NCBI RefSeq assembly: GCF_006345805.1
Contig: NC_043005.1
Coordinates: forward strand, 28,706,001 to 28,770,000
DNA length: 64,000 bases
From: Octopus sinensis
Lineage: Eukaryota
Direction of reading: 5' to 3'
How positions within the stretch are numbered: the stretch's first letter is position 1; each line of letters begins with the position of its first letter. Shown one piece after another: positions 2,436 to 58,300 of this stretch. A program made the position numbers and the translations under genes. Under the pieces are notes generated by a model. It did not search any database. It was not told the origin of the DNA and saw nothing but the letters and a program-made list of their open reading frames with translations.

Positions 2436-5292
2436 CTAACTTCAGGAAACCTGCCAGTCACCTGTTCACCTACCAACCTGGTGGGTACACTAGTCAGATT
2501 GACTATATTCACACCAGTAAACAAGAAAGATAGCTACTTATAAATGCCAAAGCTTCCTTAAGTGAAGAATGCACCCCACAACATAGGTTAGTAGTTACCA
2601 ACTTCAGGATAAGGGCTAAATGGTTGCCCAGAAGACAACCAGCATGGACAGAGATTTAGAGACGTATTACTTGAAGTTTTTGATGAAAAAGAGGAGGATA
2701 TAGCATTACATAATGTGGAAGACAAATAGACGTTCCTATGGGACAATCTGTTGAGGGTTACTGTGGCTGGTGCAAAGTCCCCTCTTGACCTAACGTAACA
2801 TGGTGGTGGAACAATGTAGTTGACAGGACCATTAGGAAAAAGAAACAAGCATGGAAGGACTGGAAGTGTGGTGGTAGCAGGGTACTGTATCAGAACGCCA
2901 GAAGGGAAGCTAGGAGACAGGTTTACTTAACCACAGGGGAAGCAGATAAGAAAAAATTTGCCAATGTTCTGCATCATTATGACCAGAGACTTGAAATGTT
3001 TCAAATTGCAAGACCGGGTGTGAGAGAGAATTGCGATGTCATGGGAGAGAAATGTGTCCACATGGATGATGGCTCACTTGCATTTAATGATGCTGCAAAG
3101 AGAGAGACTTGGAGATGCCACTATCAAAGGTTGCTAAATCAAGAGAATGAATGGGAGAAAGAGAGTCTGCCAAATGTTGACCCAACAGAGAGACCAGCTA
3201 TTCAAATTGACAGTACTTTAGTAGATAAAGCAATTAAGAGTATGAAGACAGGGAAAGCCCCCGGCCCATCAGGAATCACTGCTGAGACGCTTAAAATATC
3301 TCATGATGTGGGCTATAGTCTAGTCACACATATGGTTAAACAGGTGATATACGAAGGAGTCATACCCAATGACTGGTGTAGCAGCACCATAGTCAACTGC
3401 TACAGAGGTAAAGGTGATGCATTAGATAGAAATAATTACAGAGGTATCAAGTTATAGATCAGGTGATGAAAGTCAGAGAGGGTCATAGCCCAACTAATTA
3501 GGGAGAGAGTTAGTTTAGATGAGATGCAGTTTGGGTTTGTACCAGAGAGAAGCACCACTGATGCTATATTTCTGGTAAGATAGCTGCAGAAGAAGTTCCT
3601 AGCCAAAGATAAATCTCTGTCCTTGGCTTTTGTTGACCTGAAGAAAGTCTTAGACAGGGTTCCCCATTCCCTTATTTGGTGGTCAATGAGGAAACTAGGG
3701 CTAGATGAATGGTTGGTGAGAGCTTCACAAGCCATGTACAGAGATACTGTCAGTAAGGTAAGGGTTGGAAACAAGTATAGCGAAGAATTCCTGATAGAAA
3801 TTGGGGTTCACCAAAGATCAGTCCTCAGCCCCCTCTTGTTCATCATAGTCCTCCAGGTAATAACAGGAATTCAAGACAGGCTACCCCTGGGAGCTCCTGT
3901 ATGCTGATGACCTTACTCTAATAGCTGAGTCACTACCAGAACTAGAGAAGAAGTTTCAGGTGTGGAAGCAAGGTCTAGAGTCAAAGGGCCTGAGAGTTAA
4001 CCTAGCAAAAACCAAAGTTTTAGTAAGTAGGAAGCAGAATAAATCACAAATCCCTTCAGGTAGATGGCTGTGCTCAATCTGTACAAACTCCATAAGATGT
4101 ACTCAGTGTAAGCCTTAGACACATAAGAGGTGCAGCAATATCAAAGGATGGTTAACTGGGGAGATAGATTTAGTGTGTGGCAAATGCTCAGGGGCAATAA
4201 ACACTGAAAATGTACAGAAAACAGATTCCATCACATTCCAGAGGGAAAAACTAGAAGTAGTTGATAGCTTCCACTACATAGGTGACCAAGTCAGTAGTTG
4301 GGGTAGATGAGAGAATAGCTGCTAGAATAAGAATAGCCTGGGCAAAATTCAGAGAGCTCCTCCTCTGCTGGTAACAAAGGGCCTCTCAGTCAGAGTGAAA
4401 GGTAGACTGGTGCCTGTACGAGAAAAATCATGCTACACAGCAGTGAAACATGGGCTGTGACTGCTGAGGACATGTTGACTTGAAAAAAATGAAGCTAGTA
4501 TGCTCTGCTGGATGTGTAATATCAGTGTGCATACATGACAGAGTGTAAGCGCCCTGAGAGAAAAGTTGGACATATGAAGCATCAGATATAGTGTACAAAA
4601 GAGATGACTGTGCTGGAATGGTCATGTGATGTGTATGGATAAAGACAGCTGTGTGAAGAAGTGTCACACGCTAACAGAGGAGGGAACCTGTGGAAGAGGT
4701 AGACCCAGGAATACATGGGATGAGGTGGTGAAGCACAATCTTTAAATGTGGGGCTTCACAAAGGCAATGACAAGTGACCGACCTTTAGAGATATGCTGTA
4801 CTTAAGAAGACCCAGCAAGCCAAGTAAGATCATAGTCGTGGCCAATGTCACTGTCACATAACTGGCCCATTTAAAAGCACCCTTCAATCGCCAGGCGATA
4901 TGCTGTGTTTGTGAAGACCTATTGAACCAAGTGAAATCGTAGTTGTGGCTAATGCCAGTGCCACCAGACTGGCACCCATGCCAGTGGCATGTAAAAAGCA
5001 CCATTTGAGCATGGCCAGTGCCACTAGTCTGGCACCTGTGTCAGTGGCACGTAAAAAACACCATTCAAGTGTGACCAATGCCACCTAACTGGCACCCATG
5101 CTGGTGGCATGTAAAAAGCACCCACTACACTCTCAGAGTGGTTGGCATTAGGAAGGATATTCAGCTGTAGAAACCTTGCCAAATCAGATTGGAGCCTGGT
5201 GCAGCTTCCTTGCTTGCCAGTCCCCAGTCAAACCATCCAACCCATGCCAGCATGGAAAGCAAACATTAAATGATGGCAACGATGATGATGAT
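2436..5292 (+). mobile_element. 5'-truncated, decayed RTE-clade LINE (APE C-terminus, RT, PHD-like finger, repeat-containing 3' UTR, (GAT)n tail)
   Basis: TYQPGGYTSQIDYI (APE), GKAPGPSGITAE, NYRGIKL, MQFGFV, AFVDLKKVLDRVP, GVHQRSVLSPLLF and LYADDL motifs, with stops and frameshifts. Ends ...ttaaatgatggcaacgatgatgatgat. Confidence 0.93.
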
Positions 5293-5316
5293 ATGTGTAT
5301 ATATATATATATATAT

Positions 5317-5557
5317 TGTTTAACATCTGTTTTCCACACTGGCATGGGTTGGATGGTTTGACTGAGGTCTGGAGAACCAGCAGCTGCACCAAGCTCCAAT
5401 CTAATCAGGTAACGCTTCTACAGCTGGATGCCCTTCCTAATGCCAACCATTCCGAGAGTGTAGTGGGTGCTTCTTATGTGCCACTGGCATGGGAGCCAGT
5501 CAGAGGGTACTGGCATCAGCCACATTCAGATGGTGCTTTTTATATGCCACCGACACA
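5317..5557 (-). mobile_element. 3' end of the same RTE family, tail-to-tail with the preceding copy
   Basis: Reverse complement of the RTE 3' UTR (tttaacatctgttttccacactggcatgggttggatggtttgactg...cagctggatgcccttcctaatgccaacc). Confidence 0.88.
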
Positions 5558-13110: not shown

Positions 13111-13446
13111 GTTATGACAACAAGGGTTCCAGTTGATCTGATCGACGGAACAGCCTGCTCATGAAATCAACGTGCAAGTGGCTGAGCACTCCACAGACAT
13201 GCGTACCCTTAACATAGTGTGACAAGGCTAGCCCCTTTGAAGTACAGGTACAAAAGAAACGGAAAGAGAGAGTGAGAGAAAGTTGTGGTGAAAGAGTACA
13301 GCAAGGTTCCCCATCCCCACCGGAGCCTCGTGGAGCTTTAGGTGTTTTCACTCAATAAACATTCACAACGTCCGGTCTGGGAATCGAAACCGCAATCCTA
13401 CAACCGTGAGTCCGCTACCCTAACCACTGGGCCATTGCACCTCCAC
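13111..13446 (-). mobile_element. tRNA-derived SINE, third family
   Basis: Minus strand starts ggaggtgcaatggcccagtggttaggg...ggtttcgattccc (A/B boxes). A homologous copy lies at 42491-42866, with fragments at ~27440 and ~58307. Confidence 0.85.
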
Positions 13447-23322: not shown

Positions 23323-24249
23323 GTTTTTTGTTTTGTTTTTTTCAATAACTTATCACTGCAGTCCTGGTTGTTTCCTTACACCTACCTGGAGGAGCTTTGA
23401 TAAAAGTCTCCTGCAGACTGTCACAGTAGAAATACACTATAGCAGAGAAAAAAAAAAGGTTGCGGATGAAATTTGGGAAGCATATTTATAAAATATCCCC
23501 TCCCTTTTTATCAAAACAAAAAAAAAAAATACTAAATATTTTCCAGCATTGATTTATATAAAATTGACTGCATTAAAAGGTGCCAGCCCATAGCCATATG
23601 ACATATACTTAAAGATTACAGCTTTCTTTGTTTACCTTTTTATTCTTAATGGTGTGTGTATGTGTGTGTGTGTGTGTTGTTACTCCTGCAGGGGTACTCT
23701 GGTGTGAGCTAGTGTGTTTTCAGAGCAAATAAAGGACTCTGAATAAGGATTTCCATCCTGATACCACTCCCCACCCCTACCTCCCAATACCACTCTTCAC
23801 TTGTTCACACTTGCAATGCATGTATAGGAACAAAGTCAAATCATAAGAAAATGTGCGTGTGCAAACACTCACTCATGCATACACATATATACACACAAAC
23901 AATTTTAGGAAAAAATATATGTATGTTTGTATACCTATATGTGTGTATCTCTGTGTTGATCTATCTACACACACACACACACATGCATACAGATGCACAC
24001 ACATATTTCTGAATGAATGTCTCATCATTGTTCTAAGATTCACTTCTCCATGCTTGCATGGTTGGGTCGGGGGAAATTTGTTGCTGCATATTTTCAACGA
24101 TCACATGCGTTTTCTGTTGTCAACTCTCACCTCTTTCCAAACAAGGTAATATTTCTCCATAGTTGGACATGTTTTCACAGAAAATTAGAAACGAAGCATG
24201 TTTGCATGTATGACAGTGATGCTCAGCTATGACCATAAGGTAAAGATCC

Positions 24250-24478
24250 TTCCTGACTCATATAGACTCATCGGGCTGGTTTCCCGGTTTCCGTGGTGCA
24301 TGTATTTCTCCCCTAGATGGGATGCCAGCTCATCACAGGTTTATTCATTTTTGATAATTGATTGGACTTGAGCACTGTGAAATGAAATCTTTGGCTCAAA
24401 AACACTGCATTGTCCAGTCCAAGAATCGAAACCACAATCTTATGAACAGGAGTCCCACACCTGAACCACTAAGCCATA
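24250..24478 (-). mobile_element. tRNA-derived SINE, fourth family (decayed)
   Basis: Minus strand begins tggcttagtggttcagg...gtggtttcgattct (A/B boxes), followed by a body unlike the other SINEs. Confidence 0.55.
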
Positions 24479-24856
24479 AACCACATTTACAACTGTCACA
24501 CAGTGTCATGGATACAGAGAAACAAATACACACACACATACACTCATTTATTTATGTACGTTGAGATTCTTTCAGTTTATATGGTCCAAGGTGCCACACA
24601 GTGGGTTTGAACCTGACACCACATGGGTAGGGAGCAAACTTCTTAACCACCTGCACATCTATCATATATAGGTGTGTGTATATACATTTTTGTATGTCTG
24701 TATAGATATATATCTATATATATGCATGTATATACATATATACATGTGTGTATATGCAAATATATAGAGATGTTTGTATAAATATATATATATTAATATG
24801 AATGTATACATGAGTGTATATACATGTATTTGCGTGTGTTTGCATGTATATGGTTG

Positions 24857-24906
<50 letters not shown>

Positions 24907-26631
24907 CATACACACACGTGGATGTGTATATGTATGTATATAATACCTATATATATATAGGAGCCTAGCACAAATGCATTTTATATGTGGCCCTGAATCA
25001 ATGTGAAAACTACTATTTAATATGTTTTAATCAGAAGATTCAACACTTCTCAACCTTCAGTTACTCCACATTTTTTCTGATATCTCTGCTCCTCTTTTAT
25101 TCTTTGAACTCATCCCAGCCAATAAATTGTGACCATGCTGGAGCATAGCTCTTGTGATCTTTATTGCTTCTTTGTGGTTTTGCTTTTACTTATCAGTTTG
25201 TTTTGTTTTTTGCAAATTCTTAGCCCCCCCCCCCACACACACACACATACATATACCTTTCCTTTGTGTTTTTGTAGTTTTAATTTTGTCCTCCTCCTTC
25301 CAATCTCTCTCTCTTTCTCTATTCTCCTCATCCTTTTACCCCCATAACCAGTCTTCTTTTGTTTTTTATATTTGCTTTTTTAATTTCTACAACAAAAAAA
25401 TGAACAACTTTTGTTCTGGTGTTTCTATTATTCTTTTTCTGTAGTTCTGACTTTGCTGCTGTATGCACTCATATGTACACTTGTAACACAAGATGTTGTG
25501 TGTGTGTCTATACACACTCGCACATATAAATCACATAATACTTCTCGAACAAACTACAAATTTGGAATATTTATGAGTGTGTGTGTGTGTGTACACATGC
25601 TGATAGGAATGGAACCAGACCATCTGGAAATATTACCTGTCAGAGACTATTATGCGATCCAAAGCTACATTTATCTCAGACAATTGGCCTTCACTCTCTT
25701 ATGTTGTCATTGATACATTTAACATTGACAGGGGAGATAACTTACCTGGTGCAGTAGAAGGCTTGGTATGGAACAACCTCGTCAGCCTGTCGTCAGTCAA
25801 AAGATATTTGTGTCTCTTTACATTCTGACTTTAAATTCCGTCAAAGTCTACTCTTGTCTTTCATACTCAGGGGTTGATAAGCTAAGCACCAGTCCTGTTC
25901 TGTGATCCACTCCTCCTAAAATTCTTTGTCTTTCGTCTATATTAACAAGCACTATTTCACTTCTTTTACAATCTTAATGATATTAGAAGAGGTCTGAATG
26001 TACAAGCTTCCATTATATACTGCAGCTAAAATATTAATTAATGCTTAATTAAGAAGTTATTTCAGAGATGTACTTGCCAGGCAAGTTATCTAAGACCAAT
26101 TGTTGAAACTAAAATAACTACAGTATGGAAGACATATATTGGCCATTCAAAAGCACGTAAAGCTTATCTTCTCTCAAACATTCATTACTTGGTGTCAAAA
26201 TTTTCATTGGACTAACTGCAACGTAGTGACTTGTGGAACCACATAAGTAACCTGGTCACAGTTGGTGTAACAAAAATTTTGACCCCAAATAATAAACATT
26301 TAAGTGAAGTTAACAGTTTTTATTGTTTTTCAATGGCTCCACGCTGTAATTGTAAGAAGTTATTATATTTCTTATAAATAACTAAGTTCAAATTTTGCCA
26401 TGGTCAATTATATCTTCCATCTTTCTGGGGGTGATGAAGCATCAGTGAACTACTGGGGGCAATGTAATCAATTATACCCCCTCTGGAGCTTTATGTTAGG
26501 ATTAAAGGTAATGTAGTGTGTGGCATGGGACTTATCAAATCATTTAATCAATTTTAACTCTTAGTCAAATCATTATGGCTTCATATCTTGCTTTTAAAAA
26601 TACCAAAACTACATCATCCTACATTGTTTAT

Positions 26632-26920
26632 ATTATTTACCTGATTTACATTTGACGGATATTTACCCTCATCTTGTTTGTTGCTAACACAATGTTTTGG
26701 CTGATATACCCTCCAGCCTTCATCAGGTGTCTTGGGGAAATTTCGAACCTGGGTTCTCATTCCTAAGGTTTGAAATTTCCCCAAGACACCTGATGAAGGC
26801 TGGAGGGTATATCAGCCAAAACGTTGTGTTGACTACAAACAAGATGAGGATAAATATCCGTCAAATGTAAATCATGCAAATAATGTACATAATTCCTCAT
26901 CTCTTAAATATAGAACTGTA
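26632..26920. mobile_element. Inverted pair of HHR-family-A elements (non-autonomous PLE/retrozyme-like)
   Basis: ~118-bp arms at 26632-26749 and 26767-26885. Each carries acac CTGATGA a ggctg..cagcc (G>A)AAA c(g/a)tt gtgt. Homologous to 53072-53515. Confidence 0.8.
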
Positions 26921-29095
26921 CATATCCTATATCAGCATTTTTGGGTTTTTTTAAAACTAACCCTCACACACTACTACTCATTAAAGAGTATTAAATCATC
27001 ACTGAAGCAGTGGCTGACACATCACTGTGTCAAACTGTATCCTCATCTGTTAGGATTCAGATTCTCTCTCTCTCTCTCTCTCATTGCCCCGAAATCAGTA
27101 TTCCCTTGTAACTATCTCTTCAGGTGGCTCAATAAGAATACCAATAATGGATCTCCATCAATTAAGAGGATGAATGATCAATTATCTCCCCCTCCCTCAA
27201 ATATGCAATCTCACTCAGTCAAGAGCACTTTTCCATATTTTCTTTCTTTTCATTGTCTTGCAAGTTACTAGTGCCAGTACACACTGTAAATTAGTTACGT
27301 CAGGAAGAGCATCAAGGCATAGGAACCATGCCAAAGCTGACATTGGGGCTGGCTGCAGCCCTGCAGCTAGTTAGGCCCTGTCAAACCATCCAACCCATGC
27401 CAGCATGGAAAACAGACATTAAATGATAGTGATGAATTAGCATGGAAGTGACTGAGTATTCCACAGACATGTGTACTTTTAATGAAATTCTCAGACAGAA
27501 TCAGTATTACACAGTGTATGACAAAAACTCGACCCTTAAGTTACAGGTACCAGGGACAGACCCAAGGGGGGAGGGAGGACTGAGGGGTACTGCCCCCTCC
27601 CTCAAGAAAAGAAGTGCACCCTTCTAAATAATGTTTTTACACCCTTTTCTCATAGAATTGTATTCCCTTCTGACCTTCAGAAAACTCTTGGGACTACACC
27701 TGGGTATAATCTATTTGATAGGTTTCTGAACAGTTTGCTTCACTTGGGCCAGTCAACTTGAAGCCTTAGTAAAAAAACGCTGGTCCCAGATGTTACACAG
27801 TAAGATTGAACCTAGAACATTTTCATTGCAAAGTGAACCCTTAACTAATAAGCTGTCCTGATACCTGTGTAATAAACTTCAAAAATTGGCTTCGGTAAGG
27901 AGACAGAATATACCTTAACTACTACTACTACTACCATTGTTGCTCTTATTCGTTTCTCTCTCCACCTCTTTTTGTTGCAAATCATCACGTAATAATTATT
28001 TACTACAGGATGGTAGATGGCAGAATTAGTAGAGTGACATTTAAAATACCTTGTAATAATTGATTATCTCTCTTTACATTCTGAGTTCAAATCCTGCCAC
28101 AGTCAACTTTGCCTTTCATTTCCTTCTCTCTCTTTCTTTTTCTTTTCTTTTTTTTAGGGTAGGGGCAATTAAATAAAATACCATTTAAATACAGAGGAGG
28201 AAATGTAATCATTTTACCCCACTCCTCTCAAATTTATGGTTCTGTGCTTATGCAAGACATTATTATTTTCAACATCAGATGAGCCCCACCACCACCACCA
28301 CCCTATGCAATATCTCTGACAGGATTTTTTAATTAAGTCAATGAAAAAATAAACCAAACATCTGTTTCTAATTACATAATTATGTATTTTGTGTAATGTA
28401 AACACATCCCAACACATATTTGTTTGCTCAGCCATACCCACCCCTATAAATCTATGTTTACCCTTCCACACCCTGTATTTACACTACCACATCCAATACT
28501 ATACATCCTTTCCACATATACACACACAACCACCTGACACATCTAAAATTAATACTCTTCCACTTTTAACTTAATTAACCCTGTTACTAATTATTTAAGT
28601 TTATTTATTTATCGTTATTGTTAATGATTTGTTTAATTTTGTTGTTATTAAATATTTCATTTTAATTAAGTTTTCTCGTTGCTATATCCAGCCTTCTACC
28701 CCAATTATCAACTGTGATCTTAACGACATGGCATTTCTGTTATTGGTCAACGCCATAACAAACCTTCTTGCAATTAGTAATCATTAAAAATCTGATTTGG
28801 TTATATTAGTACTAAATTCATTTTTATGAAGATATGTGTGCACATGTGTATCTTGTGTATGTGTGTATGACTGTGTTAAAAGTTAATTTATCAATGCAGT
28901 GACAGCTAAAATCTATGGATAAGGAAATTAATGTGTGTGTGTCTTCACATTTTAGTAGCTGAATCATTGTAGCTGTTAAAAATTATTCAGAATAATTAAA
29001 AATACTATATTAAAAGCTATTAGAAACGCTGTTAATTGATCCACTATTACTTTAATGTATTTGGTAATAAAATATATGAAAGTTTTTTCAAATGG

Positions 29096-39790: not shown

Positions 39791-41722
39791 GGTTAATATA
39801 GGGCGTAACAAATATCAGAAAATCAAAAAAAAATGTGTGTAATAGGTGTAAAACAACTTCCTATGAACGAATATGAAAAAAAAAATTCGCGCACGCGAAA
39901 GGGGGGTGGGGGAGAGGCCTCGGAAAATTCACATCGTGAAGTTCCGAAAGCGTCTGAGGGGCTGACCCGGGCACCAAAACAAAAAAAAAATAGTGTAATA
40001 TGTGTAAAACAACTTGCTCTAAACGAATATGAAAAAAAAATGCGCTCTCGAGAAAGAGGGGTGGGGGAGAGGCCTCGGAATATTTATATCGGGAATTTCC
40101 GAAAGCGTCTGAACCGGGCACAAAAACAAAAACAAAAACAGCGTAATAGGTGTAAAACAACTTGCTCTAAACGACTATCATGAAAAAAATGCGCGCTCGC
40201 GAAAGGGGGGTGGGGGAGAGGCTTCGGAAATTTCACATCTTCAGTCCACGGCCTTTAAACTAAGAAAAAATAGTGTAATTGGTGTAAAACTACTAGTTCT
40301 AAACGAGTATCAAGAACACACACTCCACTGAATCATAAACTCCGTATTTCGCAAAAAAAAAAAATAAAGAGAAGAAATTCTGGAAAAAGTGAAGAAATGT
40401 TGGATCTCCGCCATGTGAATCAAAATACGTGTCAGAAACATCTTGAAATACTACAGAAATTATGTTACGAAAATGATAATGTATACATACCTCTTTGAGT
40501 GGTCCATCGATAATGATGATAAAGAAATGAGTTGGATTTGAACTCAGAATATTGACTAACACAACTACATACTACAAGACTCAAAATATTCAGCCAAGTC
40601 ACCACCCTTTAACTAGCAATAATAATACATCAATAACATAAGCCCAAAAGATTTATTTGTTCTGAAAATAACAATCATAGTAAATAAATGTTCTTTAATA
40701 TTCACATTCATGTGCACAGTTAAACACACTTACATACAAACAGTCACGCATGCATAATACAGAACGGAACACATAAATGAAGGATGCATTACTTAGTATA
40801 TATTACATCTAGAGAATTTTGATTAATAAGTCAAATATGCAAATTATAAAGATAATTAATTGCTTTACTAAACAGTGTTGTAAAGGTGAAAGAATAAATT
40901 TGGGAAAAAAATACACGCCAAAACTAATTAATAAAGGATAATTAGGGAAGGATTGACACAAAATAATAATTTTTTCTGTCTCTTTTTTTCTGATAAATGC
41001 ATCTTAATAAGTGAGAAGAATTGCATATATCTGAACTATTTCAAAGAAAAGCATAAATTTAATGTTTAAAATAGCTTTAACCAAGGAATGAGATCCAACA
41101 TTTCTTCACTTTTTCCAGAATTTCTTCTCTTTATTTTTTTTTTTTTTTTGCGAAATACGGAGTTTATGATTCATGTGTGAGTGTGTGTTCTTGATACTCG
41201 TTTAGAACTAGTAGTTTTACACCAATTACACTATTTTTTCTTAGTTTAAAGGCCGTGGACTGAAGATGTGAAATTTCCGAAGCCTCTCCCCCACCCCCCT
41301 TTCGCGAGCGCGCATTTTTTTCATGATAGTCGTTTAGAGCAAGTTGTTTTACACCTATTACGCTGTTTTTGTTTTTGTTTTTGTTTTTGTGCCCGGTTCA
41401 GACGCTTTCGGAAATTCCCGATATAAATATTCCGAGGCCTCTCCCCCACCCCTCTTTCTCGAGAGCGCATTTTTTTTTTCATATTCGTTTAGAGCAAGTT
41501 GTTTTACACATATTACACTATTTTTTTTTTTGTTTTGGTGCCCGGGTCAGCCCCTCAGACGCTTTCGGAACTTCCCGATGTGAATTTTCCGAGGCATCTC
41601 CCCCACCCCCCTTTCGCGTGCGCAAATTTTTTTTTTCATATTCGTTCATAGGAAGTTGTTTTACACCTATTACACACATTTTTTTTTTGATTTTCTGATA
41701 TTTGTTACGCCCTATATTAACC
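39791..41722. mobile_element. Young non-autonomous foldback DNA transposon (Merlin-like) with ~620-bp TIRs and 8-bp TSD
   Basis: GAATTAAG|GGTTAATATAGGGCG ... CGCCCTATATTAACC|GAATTAAG. TIRs at 39791-40408 and 41090-41722 are nearly identical, each with three ~150-bp subrepeats. Confidence 0.9.
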
Positions 41723-42490: not shown

Positions 42491-42866
42491 ACTCCGTTGG
42501 TTATGACGACGAGGGTTCCAGTTGAGCCGATCGCCGGAACAGCCCACTCACTAAATTAACGTGCAAGTGGCTGAGCAATTCACAGACATGTATACCCTTA
42601 ACATAGTTCTTGGGGAGATTCGGCATGATACAGTGTGTGACAAAGCTGGCCCTTTGAAATACATGTACAGCAGAAACAGGAAGAAAGAATGAGAGAAAGG
42701 TGTGATGAAAGAGTACAGCAGGGTTCACCACCACTCCCTGCTGCAGCCTCATGGAGCATTGGGTATTTTCAATCAATAAACAGTCACAACGCCCAGTCTA
42801 GGAATTAAAACCATGATCCTACAACCACGAGTCCACTGCCCTAACTACTGGGCAATTGTGCCTCCA
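42491..42866 (-). mobile_element. tRNA-derived SINE, same family as 13111-13446
   Basis: Colinear similarity along its whole length. Confidence 0.85.
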
Positions 42867-47817: not shown

Positions 47818-48948
47818 TGGCTAACTGGGAAGATAGTTTTTCTATGTGGCTGATGCTCAGGAGCAATAAACACTGAAAATGCTCAGAGACCAACTTCTGC
47901 CACATTCCTGGGAGAAAAACTAGAAATTGTTGATAGCTTCCGTTAACTTTGTGACCAAGTCAGTAGCGGGGGTGGGTGTGCTGAAAGTGTAACTGTTAGA
48001 GTAAGAATAGCCTGGGCAAAGTTTAGAGAGCTCTTACCTCTGCTGGTGCCTCTCGCTCAGAATAAAAGGCAGACTGTATGACGCATGTGTATGAACAGCC
48101 ATACTACATGGCAGTGAAACATGGGCCATGACTGCTGAGGATATGCATAAGCTTGCAAGAAATGAAGCCAATATGCTCCGATGGATGTGTAATGTCAGTG
48201 TTCATACTCGACAGAGTGTAAGTACCTTGAGAGAAAAGTTGGACCTAAGAAGCATCAGTTGTGGTGTGCAAGAGAGACGTTTGCGCTGGTATGGTCATGG
48301 GGCGAGAATGGATGAAGATAGTTGTGTGAAAAAGTGCCTCACCCTAGTGATTGAGGAAACCTGTGGAAGAGGTGGTGAAGTACGACCTTCGAACTTTAGG
48401 TCTCACCAAGGAAATGACCAGAGACCGAGACCTTTGGAAGTATGCTGTGCGTGGGAAGACCCGGCAGGACAAGTGAGACCATAACCCGTGACCTCTACCT
48501 GGGACGTAGCCAGCCCACTTATGCATACCTTTCCTTCTTGTGACACAAACCCTACTTGTGAAGACCTGTTGAGGCAAGTGAAAATCAAAATCAATCAACA
48601 TCAATGGAAATTGTAGCTGTGATACTAGTGCCGGTGGCATGTATGAGAACCATCTAAACGTGGCCGTTGCCAGCGCCGCCCCGTCTGGCGCCCGTGCCAG
48701 TGGCACGTAAAAAGCACCATCCAATCGTGTCCATTTGCCAGCCTCGTCTGGCACCTGTGCAGGTGGCACGTAAAAAGCACCCACTACACTCACGGAGTGG
48801 TTGGCGTTAGGAAGGGCATCCAGCCGTAGAAACACTGCCAAATCAAACTGGGCCTGACGCAGCCTTCTGGCTTCCCAGACCCCAGTTGAACCGTCCAACC
48901 CATGCTAGCATGGAAAACGGACGTTAAACGATGATGATGATGATGATG
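47818..48948 (+). mobile_element. 5'-truncated RTE LINE copy
   Basis: GEKLEIVDSF, LHGSETWA, LRWMC, RRLRWYGH, the 3' UTR repeats and a (GAT)n tail. Confidence 0.92.
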
Positions 48949-49730
48949 CGTGTGTGTATGTGTTTGTGTGTGTGTGTAGATGTGTGTAGGTACATATATA
49001 TATGTGTATATATATATATGTATATATATATATATTTGTTCATGTATGTAGATAGATAAGTGTGTATATGATTGTATGTAAGTATATATAATCACCCAGT
49101 CCTATAAATAAATGTGCATATATGCCAGCTGTTGCACAGAAATTGCCTTTGATAATGCTATAATGAAATGTAGAAAATTTCAATTTTGTTTCTAGTATTG
49201 GAAACAGTGATTGTAAAAGGAGATGAAAGTAACAAAATAACTAGTAGTTACTTTCAGTGTTAGATATGGTGTCATACTTTAATGTATTTTACTAACTAAA
49301 CTGGAAATATAATTATTTACATATTTTCACCATTAGTTATAATTCATCAATAAATCCTGTGGTTTTTGAACTGTTTAAAAACAGCTGCAGCTGGTTTTGG
49401 TTTATATTATACACTTCTATAATGTTTACCTTTGATTCTCGTTGAAAATCTCCAATTTCTCATTAAGATTGAAAGCCTTAACTCGTTTTGTTTTTGACAC
49501 AAGTGTTCAATGTTATTTATAGTAGTTTTCTTGGGGGAAGATACTTTTTATTATATAGTCAATGGAAGAGTGCCAGCTCTCATGACCTTTGTATTTTATT
49601 CCCACTTTGAAAGATGTTTGCTACATACAAAATCTAGGCTTTTTTAGCACCATACAATGAATTCTTTTAATTTCAAGTTCCAGAGTAATTGTCACTAGTA
49701 TCAGAAACCTGCCATATATCAGTTACCTGA

Positions 49731-52700: not shown

Positions 52701-53071
52701 TTAAGAGACCTCTATAGCCTTTTTCAGGGTGAGATAGCCTCTATACTGTCAGTGCCCAGTACACTGTTATAGTGGCCGTTGTTAGGAAGGACACTCAGTC
52801 ATAGAAACCATTTCATAATGGAGACATTGGAGCAAGACATTTTCCTACAGTCCATCAGATCCTGTCAAATCATCCATGCTATATCAATATGAAAAATGGA
52901 CATTTGACGATGGTCCAGAGACATAAATACATACAAATAAAAATGGCAAGAAATTGACAGTTGTTAGAACAAAGGAAGACAGATTATGATATGAGCAAAA
53001 AGAAAACCTTTTGATTAAATGTTATCTGTAATTAAACAATTTGCTAAAGGATTTCTAGCACAAACTGAAAC

Positions 53072-53357
53072 TGTTCTGTATTTTTGAGATGAAGAATTCT
53101 TTAATATTATTTACATTTACATTGGACGGATTTGTGTCCTCATCTTGTTTGTTGTTACCACACCGTTTCGGCTGATTTACTCTCCAGCCTTCATCAGGTG
53201 TCCTTGTAGAATTTTGAACCCAACCCTGAGTTCTCATTCCTAAGGTATTTTGCTGATGTTATAATTATTATTATTATTTATTCAAGGTACTGCCTGGAAT
53301 TGAACTCGCAAACTTGGGGTTAGTAGCCCACGCTCTTAACCATTATGCTATATGCCC
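53072..53357 (-). mobile_element. tRNA-headed, hammerhead-containing non-coding element (family A), apparently complete unit
   Basis: Minus strand: GGGCATATAGCATAATGGTTAAGAGCG...GAGTTCAATTCC (A/B boxes, 53357-53286), then (AAT)n, then cac CTGATGA a ggctg..cagcc GAAAC (53202-53159). The 3' end is shared with 26885-26920. Confidence 0.8.
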
Positions 53358-53378
53358 ATGAGCAATTATAGAGTGATC

Positions 53379-53515
53379 CCTTAAGAACAAGAACCCAGGG
53401 ATGGGTTCAAAATTCTACCAGGACACCTGATGAAGGCTGAAGAGTAAATCAGCCGAAACATTGTGGTAATAACAAACAAGATGAAGACACATATCTGTTC
53501 AATGTAAATGATGTA
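53379..53515 (+). ncRNA. Inverted partial copy of family A with intact HHR core
   Basis: cac CTGATGA a ggctg aagagtaaat cagcc GAAA catt gtg. Confidence 0.75.
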
Positions 53516-53794
53516 CAAACTGAAGCTATCAGCTTTTGGACATCGAATGTCCTATATTATTTTATCAAGTTGCAGTTACAATTTTCCAAAAGACAAGAAT
53601 AACAGATTGATTGTGATAAGAACACACAATCAAAATGGATCACCTCACAAAAAGGAAAATATCGACAGGCTCTGGAAAAATATTGAACGTTTGGATACTA
53701 CCATTAAATGCAAAGTGAATAATGAAGTGATGAACAAGCAGCTATGATAGACTGTCTAAAGTCTTTGGAAATTACCAATGGAGAATACACACTA

Positions 53795-54537: not shown

Positions 54538-54540
54538 TAT

Positions 54541-55694
54541 ATCAAAGGAAGGCTAACTGGAAAGACAGATTTGTGTGTGGCAGATGCACAGGAGCAATAA
54601 ACACTGAAAATGTTCCATCACATGCCAGGGGGAAGAACTAGAAGTAGTTGTTAGCTTCCATTACCTAGGTAACCAAGTCAGTAGAGGGATAGATGCTCTG
54701 AGAGTGTAGCTACTAGAATAAGAATAGCCTGGGCAAAGGTCAGAGAGATCCTACTTCTGCTGGCAACAAAGAGCCTCTCACTCAGAGTAAAAGGTAAACT
54801 GTATGGTGCATGTGTGCAAAAAACCATGCTACATGGCAGTGAAACATGGGCTGTGACTGCTGAGGACATGCGTAAGCTTGCAAGAAATGAAGCTAGTATG
54901 CTCCACTGGATGTGTAATATCAGTGTGCATACACGACAGAGTGTAAGCACGCTAAGAGGAAAGTTGGACATAAGAAGCATCAGATATGGTGTGCAAGAGA
55001 GACGACTGTGCTGGTATGGTCATGTGTTGCGTATGAATGAGGACAGCTGTGTGAAAAAGTGTCACACCCTAACTGTGGAGGGAACTTGTAGAAGAGGTAG
55101 ACCCAGGAAGACCTGGGATGAGATAGTGAAGTATGACCTTCGAATGCTGGGCCTCACCAAGGCAATGACAAGTGACTGAAACCTTTGGAGATATGCTTGT
55201 GCTTGAGAAGACCCAACAAGCCAAGTGAGATCATAACTGTGGCTTATGCCAGTGTTGCATAACCAGCCCATTTAACAGTAGACTTCAATCATTGAGCAAT
55301 AAACTATGCTTGTGAAGACATGTTGAGGCAAGTGAAATCATTGTCTTGGCCAATGCCAGTACTACTTGATTGGCACCTGTGCCAGGGGCACATAAAAAGC
55401 ACCATATGAAAGTGGTCGATGTCAGTTTTGCCTGACTGGTCCAATGATGGTGGCATGTAAAAAGCACCAGCCAAACATAGCTGATGCCAGGCCCACCTGA
55501 CTGGCTCCTGTGCCAGTGGAACGTAAAAAGCACCCACTACACTCTGAGTGGTTGGTGTTAAGAAGGGCATCCAGCTGAAGAATCCTTGCCAGATCAGATT
55601 GGAGCCTGGTGCAGCCTTCTGGCTTGCCAATCCTCAGTCAAACCATCCAAACCATACCAGCATGGAAAGTGGATGTTAAACAATGATGATGATG
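54541..55694 (+). mobile_element. 5'-truncated RTE LINE copy
   Basis: MLHGSETWAVT, MLHWMC, WYGHVLR and RGRPRKTW motifs, 3' UTR repeats, (GAT)n tail. Confidence 0.92.
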
Positions 55695-55696
55695 AA

Positions 55697-56382
55697 GTGT
55701 GGCTGTGTAGTAAGAAGTTTGCTTCCCAGCCATAAAATTTGGGGTTCAGTCCCATTGCAGAACACCTTGGACCAACCATTTCCTTGTGAGTGGATTTGGT
55801 TGACAGAAGCTAAAAGAAGCTCATTAGCACTGTGTGTGTGTGTGTGTATGCGTGCGTGCGTGCGCGTGCATGTGTGTGTGTGTGTATGGGTGTGTTTGCT
55901 TTACTGTTTCCTTGCTGTGACATCACATGGTTGTTGTAAGCAAGTCTCCCTGTCAAACAATTGATATCCTTCATTCCAATATGCTGTAAAACACAAGGCA
56001 GCAAGCTGGCAGAAATGTTAGCATGCTGGGCAAAATGCTTAGCAGTATTTCTTGTCTTTATGTTCTGGTTTCAAATTCCGCCAAGGTCAACTTTGTCTCT
56101 CATCTTTTCAGGGATAGATAAATTTAACACCAGTTGCATACTGGGGTTGATTTAATTGACTGGCCCCCTTCCCCCCCAAAAAAATTTCAGGCCTTGTGCC
56201 TAGAGTAGAAAAGAACATGCTATAAAAACACATCTGGTCATGGGGATAAATATTACCTTACTTGGAAACAGGTGAGAGTTGGCAAGAGGAAGAGCAGGTG
56301 ACCATAGAAAATCTGTCTCAACAAATTCCATCAGAGACATGCATGGATGGAAAAGTGGACATTAAAACTATGATGACGATGA

Positions 56383-56980: not shown

Positions 56981-58300
56981 CATAAGATGTACCCAGTGTA
57001 AGCTAGGGACACACAAAGGTGCAGCAATTTCAAAGGAAGGCTAACTGGGAAGATAGTTTTTGTGCGTGGCAAATGCTCAGGGGCAATAAACACTGAAAAT
57101 GTGCTGAGAACAGCTTCCGTCACATTCCAGGGAGAAAAACTAGAAGTAGTTGATAGCTTCCATTACCTAGGTGACCAAGTCAGTAACAGGAGTAGATGCT
57201 CTGAGAGTGTAACTGCTAAAATAAGAATAGCTTGGGCAAAGTTCAGAGAGATCCTACCTCTGTTGGTGACAAAGAGCCTCTCGCTCAGAGTAAAAGGAAG
57301 ACTGTATGACGCATGTGTGCAAACAGCCATGCTACATGGCAGTGAAACATGGGCCGTGACTGCTGAGGACATGCGTAAGCCTGCAAGAAAGGAAGCTAGT
57401 ATGCTCCACTGGATGTGTAATGTTAGTGTGCATACATGTCAATGTAAGTGCCCTGAGAGGAAAGTTGGACATAAGAAGCATCAGATGTGGTGTACAAGAG
57501 AGACGAATGTGCTAGTATGATCATGTGTTGTGAATGAATGAGGACAGCTGTGTGAAAAACTGTCACACCCTAACAGTGGAGGGAACCTGGGGAAGAGGAA
57601 GACCTGGGATGAGGTAGTGAAGCATGATCTTTAAACGTTGTGCCTCACAGAGACTGAGACATTTGGAGATATGCTGTGCTTGAGAAGATCAAGTGAGACT
57701 GTAGCTGTGGCCTATGCCATATAACTGGCCCATTTAAGAGTACCCATCAATCATTGGACAATAAACTATGCTTGCCAAGACCTGTTGAGGCAAGTGAAAT
57801 CATTGTCATGGCCAATGACAGTACCACCTGATTGGCACCTGTGTCAATGGAACATTTAAAGCACCATTTTAGCATGATTGTTTCCAGGGCCACTGACTGG
57901 CTCCCGTGCTGGTGGCATGTAAAAAGCACCATTCAAGCATGATCATTGCCAGCATTGCCTGACTGGCTCCTGTGCCAATGGCATGTAAAAAACACCATTC
58001 GAGCATTGTCGTTGCCAGTGCCGCTGGACTGGCTCCTGTGCAGGTGGAATGTAAAAAGCACCATTTGAGCGCGACCGATATCAATACCACCTGACTGGCC
58101 CTTGTGCCAGTGGCACATAAAAGCACCCACTACACTCTCGGAGTGGTTGCTATTAGGAAGGGCATCCAGCTGTAGAGACTTTGCTAGATTAGTTTGGGGC
58201 CTGGTGCAGCCTTCTGGCTCACCAGCCCTCAGTAAAACCATCCAAACCATGCCAGCATGGAAAGCGGACGTTAAACGACGGCGATGATGATAATGATGAT
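56981..58300 (+). mobile_element. 5'-truncated RTE LINE copy with expanded 3' UTR repeats
   Basis: Begins in the PHD-like finger. GEKLEVVDSFHYLG and LHGSETWA motifs, 5-6 tandem ~60-bp UTR units, (GAT)n tail. Confidence 0.92.

Follow-up and report, generated by a model that had tools for sequence, protein, structure and literature searches.

A minus-strand repeat with a tRNA-derived head and a hammerhead ribozyme motif, found in a 64,000-nt stretch of the Octopus sinensis genome (NC_043005.1, positions 28,706,001 to 28,770,000; hereafter the window), is, by sequence comparison, the pseudo-long terminal repeat (pLTR) of an autonomous Penelope-like element (PLE) of the Penelope/Poseidon type, the clade being assigned by similarity. 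Its head probably provides an internal RNA polymerase III (Pol III) promoter, which would set the RNA start at about position -6. The family is real, old and of high copy number, and its integration anatomy is standard for PLEs. A sequence-only reading of the window had correctly located the tRNA-like head with its A and B boxes, the (AAT)n tract, the hammerhead and an inverted partial copy, and its proposal that a PLE rather than a long interspersed nuclear element (LINE) mobilizes the unit is borne out by an open reading frame (ORF) with reverse transcriptase (RT) and GIY-YIG parts joined to the head. The same reading treated the unit as non-coding and as a separate non-autonomous family, a hybrid of short interspersed element (SINE) and retrozyme; the first is incorrect, and the second is not supported by the comparisons below. 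Element positions are counted from the head's first G (G1), where 0 corresponds to window position 53357 on the minus strand (Table 1).

The autonomous element is seen in the family consensus, which was built from 19 and 25 loci, polished on all loci and has a minimum depth of 19. Over 2,940 nt it runs from the head through (AAT)n, an ATG at +120 and an uninterrupted 835-aa ORF to a stop codon at -33, and then into the head again, 33 nt beyond the stop; the hammerhead, the tail, RT and GIY-YIG follow the ATG in that order. Several of the 30 best loci run on upstream of the head into a frame with RT and GIY-YIG motifs, and in L016, L019 and L028 the C-terminal end of this frame immediately precedes the head; most of the 40 candidates scored with a 1.3-kb ORF-plus-pLTR query cover both parts. 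For a 300-aa segment of one copy that contains no stop, there are 127 longer homologues (526-2000 aa), including an 836-aa Anolis protein (33%). Because the ORF begins at +120 and an 847-aa homologue aligns (47%) starting at the hammerhead-encoded residues, the hammerhead, the tail and what had been taken for a second B box are all among the first 50 codons of the ORF. The supposedly non-coding unit is thus the start of the PLE ORF from 53237 onward, the second B box is coding sequence, and the window copy continues as PLE sequence for 19 nt upstream of the head, beyond the unit as first delimited.

The features of endonuclease-positive (EN+) PLEs are present in the family. There is a single ORF with RT plus a GIY-YIG domain at its C terminus, the latter called from motifs and homologues; Pfam searches with two ORF fragments returned nothing significant. 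Terminal repeats occur in L218/L430, L432 and, as a partial tandem, L413. The consensus pLTR carries a minimal hammerhead with a palindromic stem III, and two optional features, a tail of 30-40 nt and an inverted truncated partner, are also found. Contigs from four other sequencing runs contain the ORF end, the head and the hammerhead, and a few of them cross the stop-to-head junction; these indicate presence only.

Integration anatomy was examined in 90 tail-anchored arms (the first 90 of 6,037 matches). Their 3' ends cluster at two sites separated by about 28 nt, 55 at +238 to +252 and 34 at +272 to +281; 47 of the 90 have an adjacent inverted partner, and exact target-site duplications (TSDs) of 9-15 bp flank 13 of 31 pairs. 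Many copies (L400-L472) end 20-500 nt into the ORF past the tail, which suggests further RT start sites or later breakage. In the window, the arm pair is a single insertion, because a 10-bp TSD, absent from the sequence-only reading, encloses both arms; the inverted stretches (53114-53248 and 53376-53510) comprise 135 nt and are 89% complementary.

Searches of the genome (2.72 Gb) confirm a repeat beyond chance: the unit gave 5,598 first-look candidates, with 40 scored and 70 matches, and exact 24- to 34-mers had 96 to 6,037 matches each, against 0 for reversed controls. Two subfamilies are evident. The window copy belongs to the minor subfamily B (96 exact 34-mers, vs 3,028 for a subfamily A 32-mer), whereas subfamily A has roughly 24,000-29,000 arms, as estimated from exact-match counts, with 63 copies used for calibration (8 and 13 exact matches). 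Non-CpG divergence from the consensus is 4-6%. One locus, L281, combines an A-type head with intermediate hammerhead letters and may represent a third subfamily.

The short, SINE-like copies could in principle form a lineage of their own, a self-propagating tRNA-SINE that borrows the PLE end and in which each short copy founds more. This appears improbable. Short arms do outnumber ORF-linked ones (37 head-only vs 10, n=90), they are slightly less diverged (4.4% vs 5.5% non-CpG), and a 5' tRNA-derived head with A and B boxes joined to a partner-derived end is the plan of a SINE. Yet the head belongs to an autonomous element, what separates subfamilies A and B within the ORF is a 6-nt insertion in B that keeps the frame, and subfamily B has ORF-linked copies too (six seen: L032, L016, L080, L067, L028 and L019). 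Short and long consensus sequences are identical in both subfamilies. After removal of duplicates (58 to 46 and 98 to 94 copies), 1,008 tests yielded no short-specific substitutions, and polymorphisms are shared, such as the non-CpG change G>A at +63 (34/92 short and 18/44 long copies). Initial differences between long and short copies were due to duplicated loci; what remained after deduplication were deletions commoner in long copies, and none of them survived correction. These included small hammerhead deletions at +147 to +158 and +184 to +193 (5-9 of about 45 long vs 0-4 of about 94 short copies), which are not significant after 1,008 tests and among which duplicates may remain. No independent SINE lineage is seen, because short and long copies share one consensus, nor was a non-autonomous lineage distinct from its partner found. 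The comparison therefore favors reading the short units as solo pLTRs of the PLE itself.

The origin of the head was addressed with 12 tRNA genes of the same genome, whose profile, run with nhmmer, matched the head at E=4e-4 in the window and E=5e-6 on the consensus, in agreement with the tRNA derivation first proposed. The best match is Arg-TCT (z 7.5; 12 genes tested). No cloverleaf fold is obtained for the head; Rfam scans matched neither tRNA nor hammerhead, and ARAGORN found 0 tRNAs in the window. An Rfam match to MIR7533 merely reflects the inverted repeat, and the sole ARAGORN call at a lowered threshold lies on the reverse strand and is spurious. Head and hammerhead region are consistently joined, as had been proposed, in 76 of 93 copies anchored on the head; this sample comes from the first 90 regions among 2,211 pattern matches, lies on contig C1 and partly overlaps the tail-anchored one. 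The 17 copies lacking the hammerhead region within 450 nt were considered as a free SINE with this head and rejected: on visual inspection they look disrupted by microsatellite expansion or later insertions, with no body of their own in common, although the exact anchor would miss a diverged ancestral SINE. In L084, L097, L100, L109, L154 and L170, other repeats, the same ones repeatedly, are inserted in or just after (AAT)n. A search for sister PLE families without the head, using the query P0006, gave only this family among the 30 loci covered, of 85 matches. The head probably arose when a tRNA retrocopy, or a simple SINE with an (AAT)n tail, inserted into an ancestral pLTR.

The 5' ends of copies point to a defined template end at the head. 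Among the 93 head-anchored arms, 25 end at +2 to +16, 38 at -7 to +1, one at -8, 10 at -11 to -20 (mostly fold-backs mimicking upstream sequence) and 19 further upstream. The peak at -7 to +1 thus takes 38 of the 68 arms still at risk, vs 6 of 19 over the 80 nt from -21 to -100. Tail-anchored arms (n=90) agree: the hazard per nt is 0.002-0.005 as background and 0.011 in the AAT tract, where later insertions inflate it, rising to 0.024 at +2 to +16 and 0.048 at -8 to +1, with 0/10 ending at -21 to -60. In the ORF-crossing sample (70 of 221 copies running from the pLTR into the ORF), seven copies reach the 5' part of the head and five of these stop at -14 to +3. Exact 32-mer counts fall similarly, from 2,211 for the head (degenerate) to 296 for sequence 30-60 nt upstream. 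On the simplest reading, the template would start with G(-6), which lies 13 nt ahead of the A box, a spacing that matches that of transcription start and A box in tRNA genes.

Whether the head is a working promoter or a passenger bears on how this peak arises. In the latter case the PLE would be the same, and ends would cluster through an ordinary RNA polymerase II (Pol II) pLTR start, stalling or snap-back at the palindrome over -6 to +3, or processing at the 5' edge of a tRNA-like segment. This alternative is possible, if on balance unlikely. The palindrome and fold-back junctions are real, with fold-back at -6 in about 12 of 50 cases by eye, and 8 of the 93 ends lie exactly at G1; however, about half of the clustered 5' ends have no inverted partner or one that ends far away, and many peak ends show no fold-back. 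The lack of a cloverleaf fold in the head and the 13-nt spacing between peak and A box also count against it. Both boxes are also kept in both subfamilies: the A box changes from TGGCGTAGTGG to TAGCGTAATGG and the B box from GTTCGATTC to GTTCAATTC, all three changes falling at purine-degenerate positions within the Pol III consensus. Sense-strand runs of four or more T (T4) are absent from the 2,940-nt consensus, where synonymous shuffles expect 2.9 in the ORF (P(0)=0.03); of 15 tRNA genes, 12 carry one within 36 nt.

Several observations weigh against a Pol III start, and some against the reconstruction as a whole. In three RNA-seq runs, depth was the same on the two strands and no start sites emerged, 67-71% of the placed reads running into unlike flanks, so that these runs lend no RNA support to Pol III; no run recorded as RNA was listed among those containing the sequence. 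Translation of an 835-aa ORF normally requires capped RNA. The pile-up of ends marks the end of a template, not the polymerase that made it, and the GCCC-AC-GGGC palindrome could itself favor ends there; the direct arm in the window starts off the peak, at -19. The box comparison comprises only three changes, one a CpG transition. The absence of T4 is one test at P=0.03; G4 is absent also (P=0.27), T3 runs number 13 vs 17.8 expected, and the one T4 in a subfamily B consensus comes from two copies, one of them misassigned. The samples are partly overlapping exact-pattern matches on contig C1, end calls may be off by several nt, and some ends are internal deletions (e.g., L094). No copy was seen to cover -6 through the final tail in one stretch (L432 spans 94-2917 and L430 10-1190). 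Finally, promoters are known within PLE pLTRs, and Drosophila virilis Penelope has an internal, TATA-less, LINE-like one (PMC2377424). Taken with these points, the sequence evidence still makes it fairly probable that the head functions as a Pol III promoter. The stronger proposal, that Pol III makes the whole 2.9-kb coding template from a captured tRNA-type promoter while the ORF is kept T4-free, seems unlikely.

A third possibility, raised by the hammerhead, is a retrozyme-like element spreading via self-cleaved or circular RNA, and it is very improbable. In both subfamilies the hammerhead consensus keeps its core and its ACGT palindrome and fits the minimal PLE motif, with an extra A before stem II; animal retrozymes have moreover been argued to descend from PLE pLTRs (bioRxiv 10.64898/2026.07.22.740005). 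The motif has nevertheless decayed in many copies: the core is intact in 48 of 91 short subfamily A copies, and ACGT+H is found in 19 of 91. Both window motifs are mutated, their stem-III palindromes being broken (GAAACGGT and GAAACATT; consensus GAAACGTT), and the direct-arm hammerhead is predicted inactive because ACGT has become ACGG. The predicted cut precedes +190, but 0 of 90 tail-anchored arms end at +189 to +192 (the nearest at +193), and only 2 of 70 ORF-crossing copies end at +191, near background. In dimer cofolding the active dimer was not the minimum-energy state. Of the arrangements first envisaged, inverted pairs are common; copies are dispersed, and head-to-tail arrays of the short unit were absent from the loci mapped, no genome-wide tandem search having been made. 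For the proposed self-cleaved or circular RNA route, the copy ends bear no imprint of the cut. The hammerhead is of the minimal kind usual in PLEs; it is predicted to be active only when dimeric, and integration apparently does not depend on it. The anole PLE PAc (Poseidon_Ac) also inserts uncut RNA (PMC11167929).

Under the favored Pol III reading, a coherent cycle can be proposed. The tRNA-derived head, as internal Pol III promoter, would fix the RNA start at about -6, and this would explain the many short copies starting exactly at the head. The PLE RT would prime internally at the tail, as for PAc in vitro. Priming in the first pLTR of the RNA would give a solo pLTR of about 280 nt that reaches the RNA 5' end and looks like a SINE, whereas priming at the downstream pLTR of a tandem template would give ORF-bearing copies; the window copy, which reaches -19, would stem from a longer template made by read-through. 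An inverted pair would result when two cDNAs are primed, one on each strand. Short copies would be dead ends, because they lack the ORF sequence past the tail that corresponds to the RNA beyond the RT start sites that PAc needs for recognition (PMC11167929).

Comparison with known systems places most of this anatomy within canonical EN+ PLEs (PAc, PMC11167929; Penelope, PMC2377424; structures, PMC8557442). They share an RT plus C-terminal GIY-YIG ORF of about 835 aa, a pLTR, a minimal hammerhead that overlaps the beginning of the ORF, two 3' ends spaced by about 30 nt and an inverted 5'-truncated partner; in PAc, the ORF starts at stem II of the hammerhead and two internal RT start sites define the tail (PMC11167929). 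As far as these accounts describe, only the octopus pLTR begins with a tRNA-derived A/B-box head and shows a 5'-end pile-up. The TRIMp3 elements Cassandra, Helenus and Ajax likewise carry a small-RNA-gene segment in the terminal repeat; it is interpreted as a Pol III promoter, with SINE insertion as its proposed origin (Kojima, 2024, PMC10886601). They are, however, non-autonomous, non-coding LTR elements under 1.3 kb, with true LTRs, a primer-binding site and a polypurine tract, and their autonomous partners are argued to use Pol II; the octopus head lies in the pLTR of a coding PLE with 9-15-bp TSDs. Schistosome Sm-alpha and Sj-alpha also join a Pol III-type promoter to a type I hammerhead, but are described as tandem, non-coding and shown to cleave (PMC6765202, PMC8490949), whereas copies of the octopus unit are dispersed and arranged head-to-head, and the unit belongs to a coding PLE. 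The type I hammerhead and the PLE pLTR link are shared by metazoan non-LTR retrozymes, which are reported to be promoterless, circle-forming tandem monomers (PMC7761336; bioRxiv 10.64898/2026.07.22.740005); none of these traits was seen for the octopus unit in the loci mapped. Searches of the open literature turned up no account of a PLE pLTR headed by a tRNA-derived segment, and the family may already be catalogued in other papers, Repbase or Dfam, possibly as a SINE. What appears new is the retention of a tRNA-type promoter module at the apparent start of a PLE that is otherwise standard.

Table 1. Features of the element in the window (positions in the 64,000-nt stretch).
Feature	Position	Strand	Basis
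TSD, left copy (ACAAACTGAA)	53060..53069	+	sequence
Direct arm: 5'-truncated PLE end, subfamily B, -19 to about +276 from G1	53070..53376	-	sequence comparison
PLE sequence upstream of head (3' untranslated region past ORF stop), 19 nt; holds G at -6 (53363), the family's putative RNA start	53358..53376	-	start inferred
tRNA-derived head, no cloverleaf; best of 12 tested, tRNA-Arg TCT of same genome	53286..53357	-	nhmmer E=4e-4; z=7.5 for consensus
A box of Pol III type, TAGCATAATGG (TGGCGTAGTGG in the subfamily A consensus)	53340..53350	-	sequence; general box consensus
Pol III B box GAGTTCAATTCC (subfamily A GAGTTCGATTCC)	53296..53307	-	sequence; general box consensus
(AAT)n tract, length varies; in other copies often expanded or hit by later insertions	53259..53282 (about)	-	
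Supposed second B box GGTTCAAAA, coding sequence	53220-53212	-	
First ~55 codons of PLE ORF (ATG 53237-53235); includes supposed second B box, hammerhead and tail	53070..53237	-	
Minimal type I hammerhead: stem I CAC/GTG, CTGATGA, extra A, stem II GGCTG/CAGCC, GAAAC; palindrome ACGT to ACGG, predicted inactive	53159..53200	-	sequence; PMC4209133
Hammerhead core parts	CTGATGA 53197-53191; GAAAC 53169-53165	-	
PLE tail between two preferred 3' ends (+242-250, +272-281)	53070..53100	-	PMC11167929
Inverted arm, about +112 to +246, without head and tail; hammerhead 53427-53462 with GAAACATT	53379..53514	+	
TSD, right copy	53515..53524	+	sequence
Another insertion of this family (subfamily A), its arms arranged head-to-head and truncated ahead of the head	26623..26919	not assigned	

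Elsewhere in the window, weaker matches to the tRNA profile at 13375-13434 and 42793-42860 on the minus strand (E 0.012 and 0.037) are probably heads of other tRNA SINEs. A long inverted repeat with internal repeats (39791-40408 and 41090-41722) extends over 633 nt at 97% identity, and a repeat family of 1-1.5 kb occurs in multiple copies with inverted pieces at 4091-5557, 47818-48959, 54539-55701 and 56981-58297.

These features matter because very few PLEs have had their transcription mapped. Two fixed 3' ends, together with the absence of ends at the ribozyme cut, offer in vivo support for the internal-priming model derived from PAc in vitro. Automated annotation would misfile such solo pLTRs as tRNA SINEs. 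Tens of thousands of arms with 5' ends 13 nt before an A box make Pol III promoter capture by an autonomous retroelement directly testable, and, if that capture is true, the family would be the PLE counterpart of TRIMp3. Should the full template itself prove to be made by Pol III, the SINE-like solo pLTRs would be its by-product and would show the birth of a PLE-dependent SINE.
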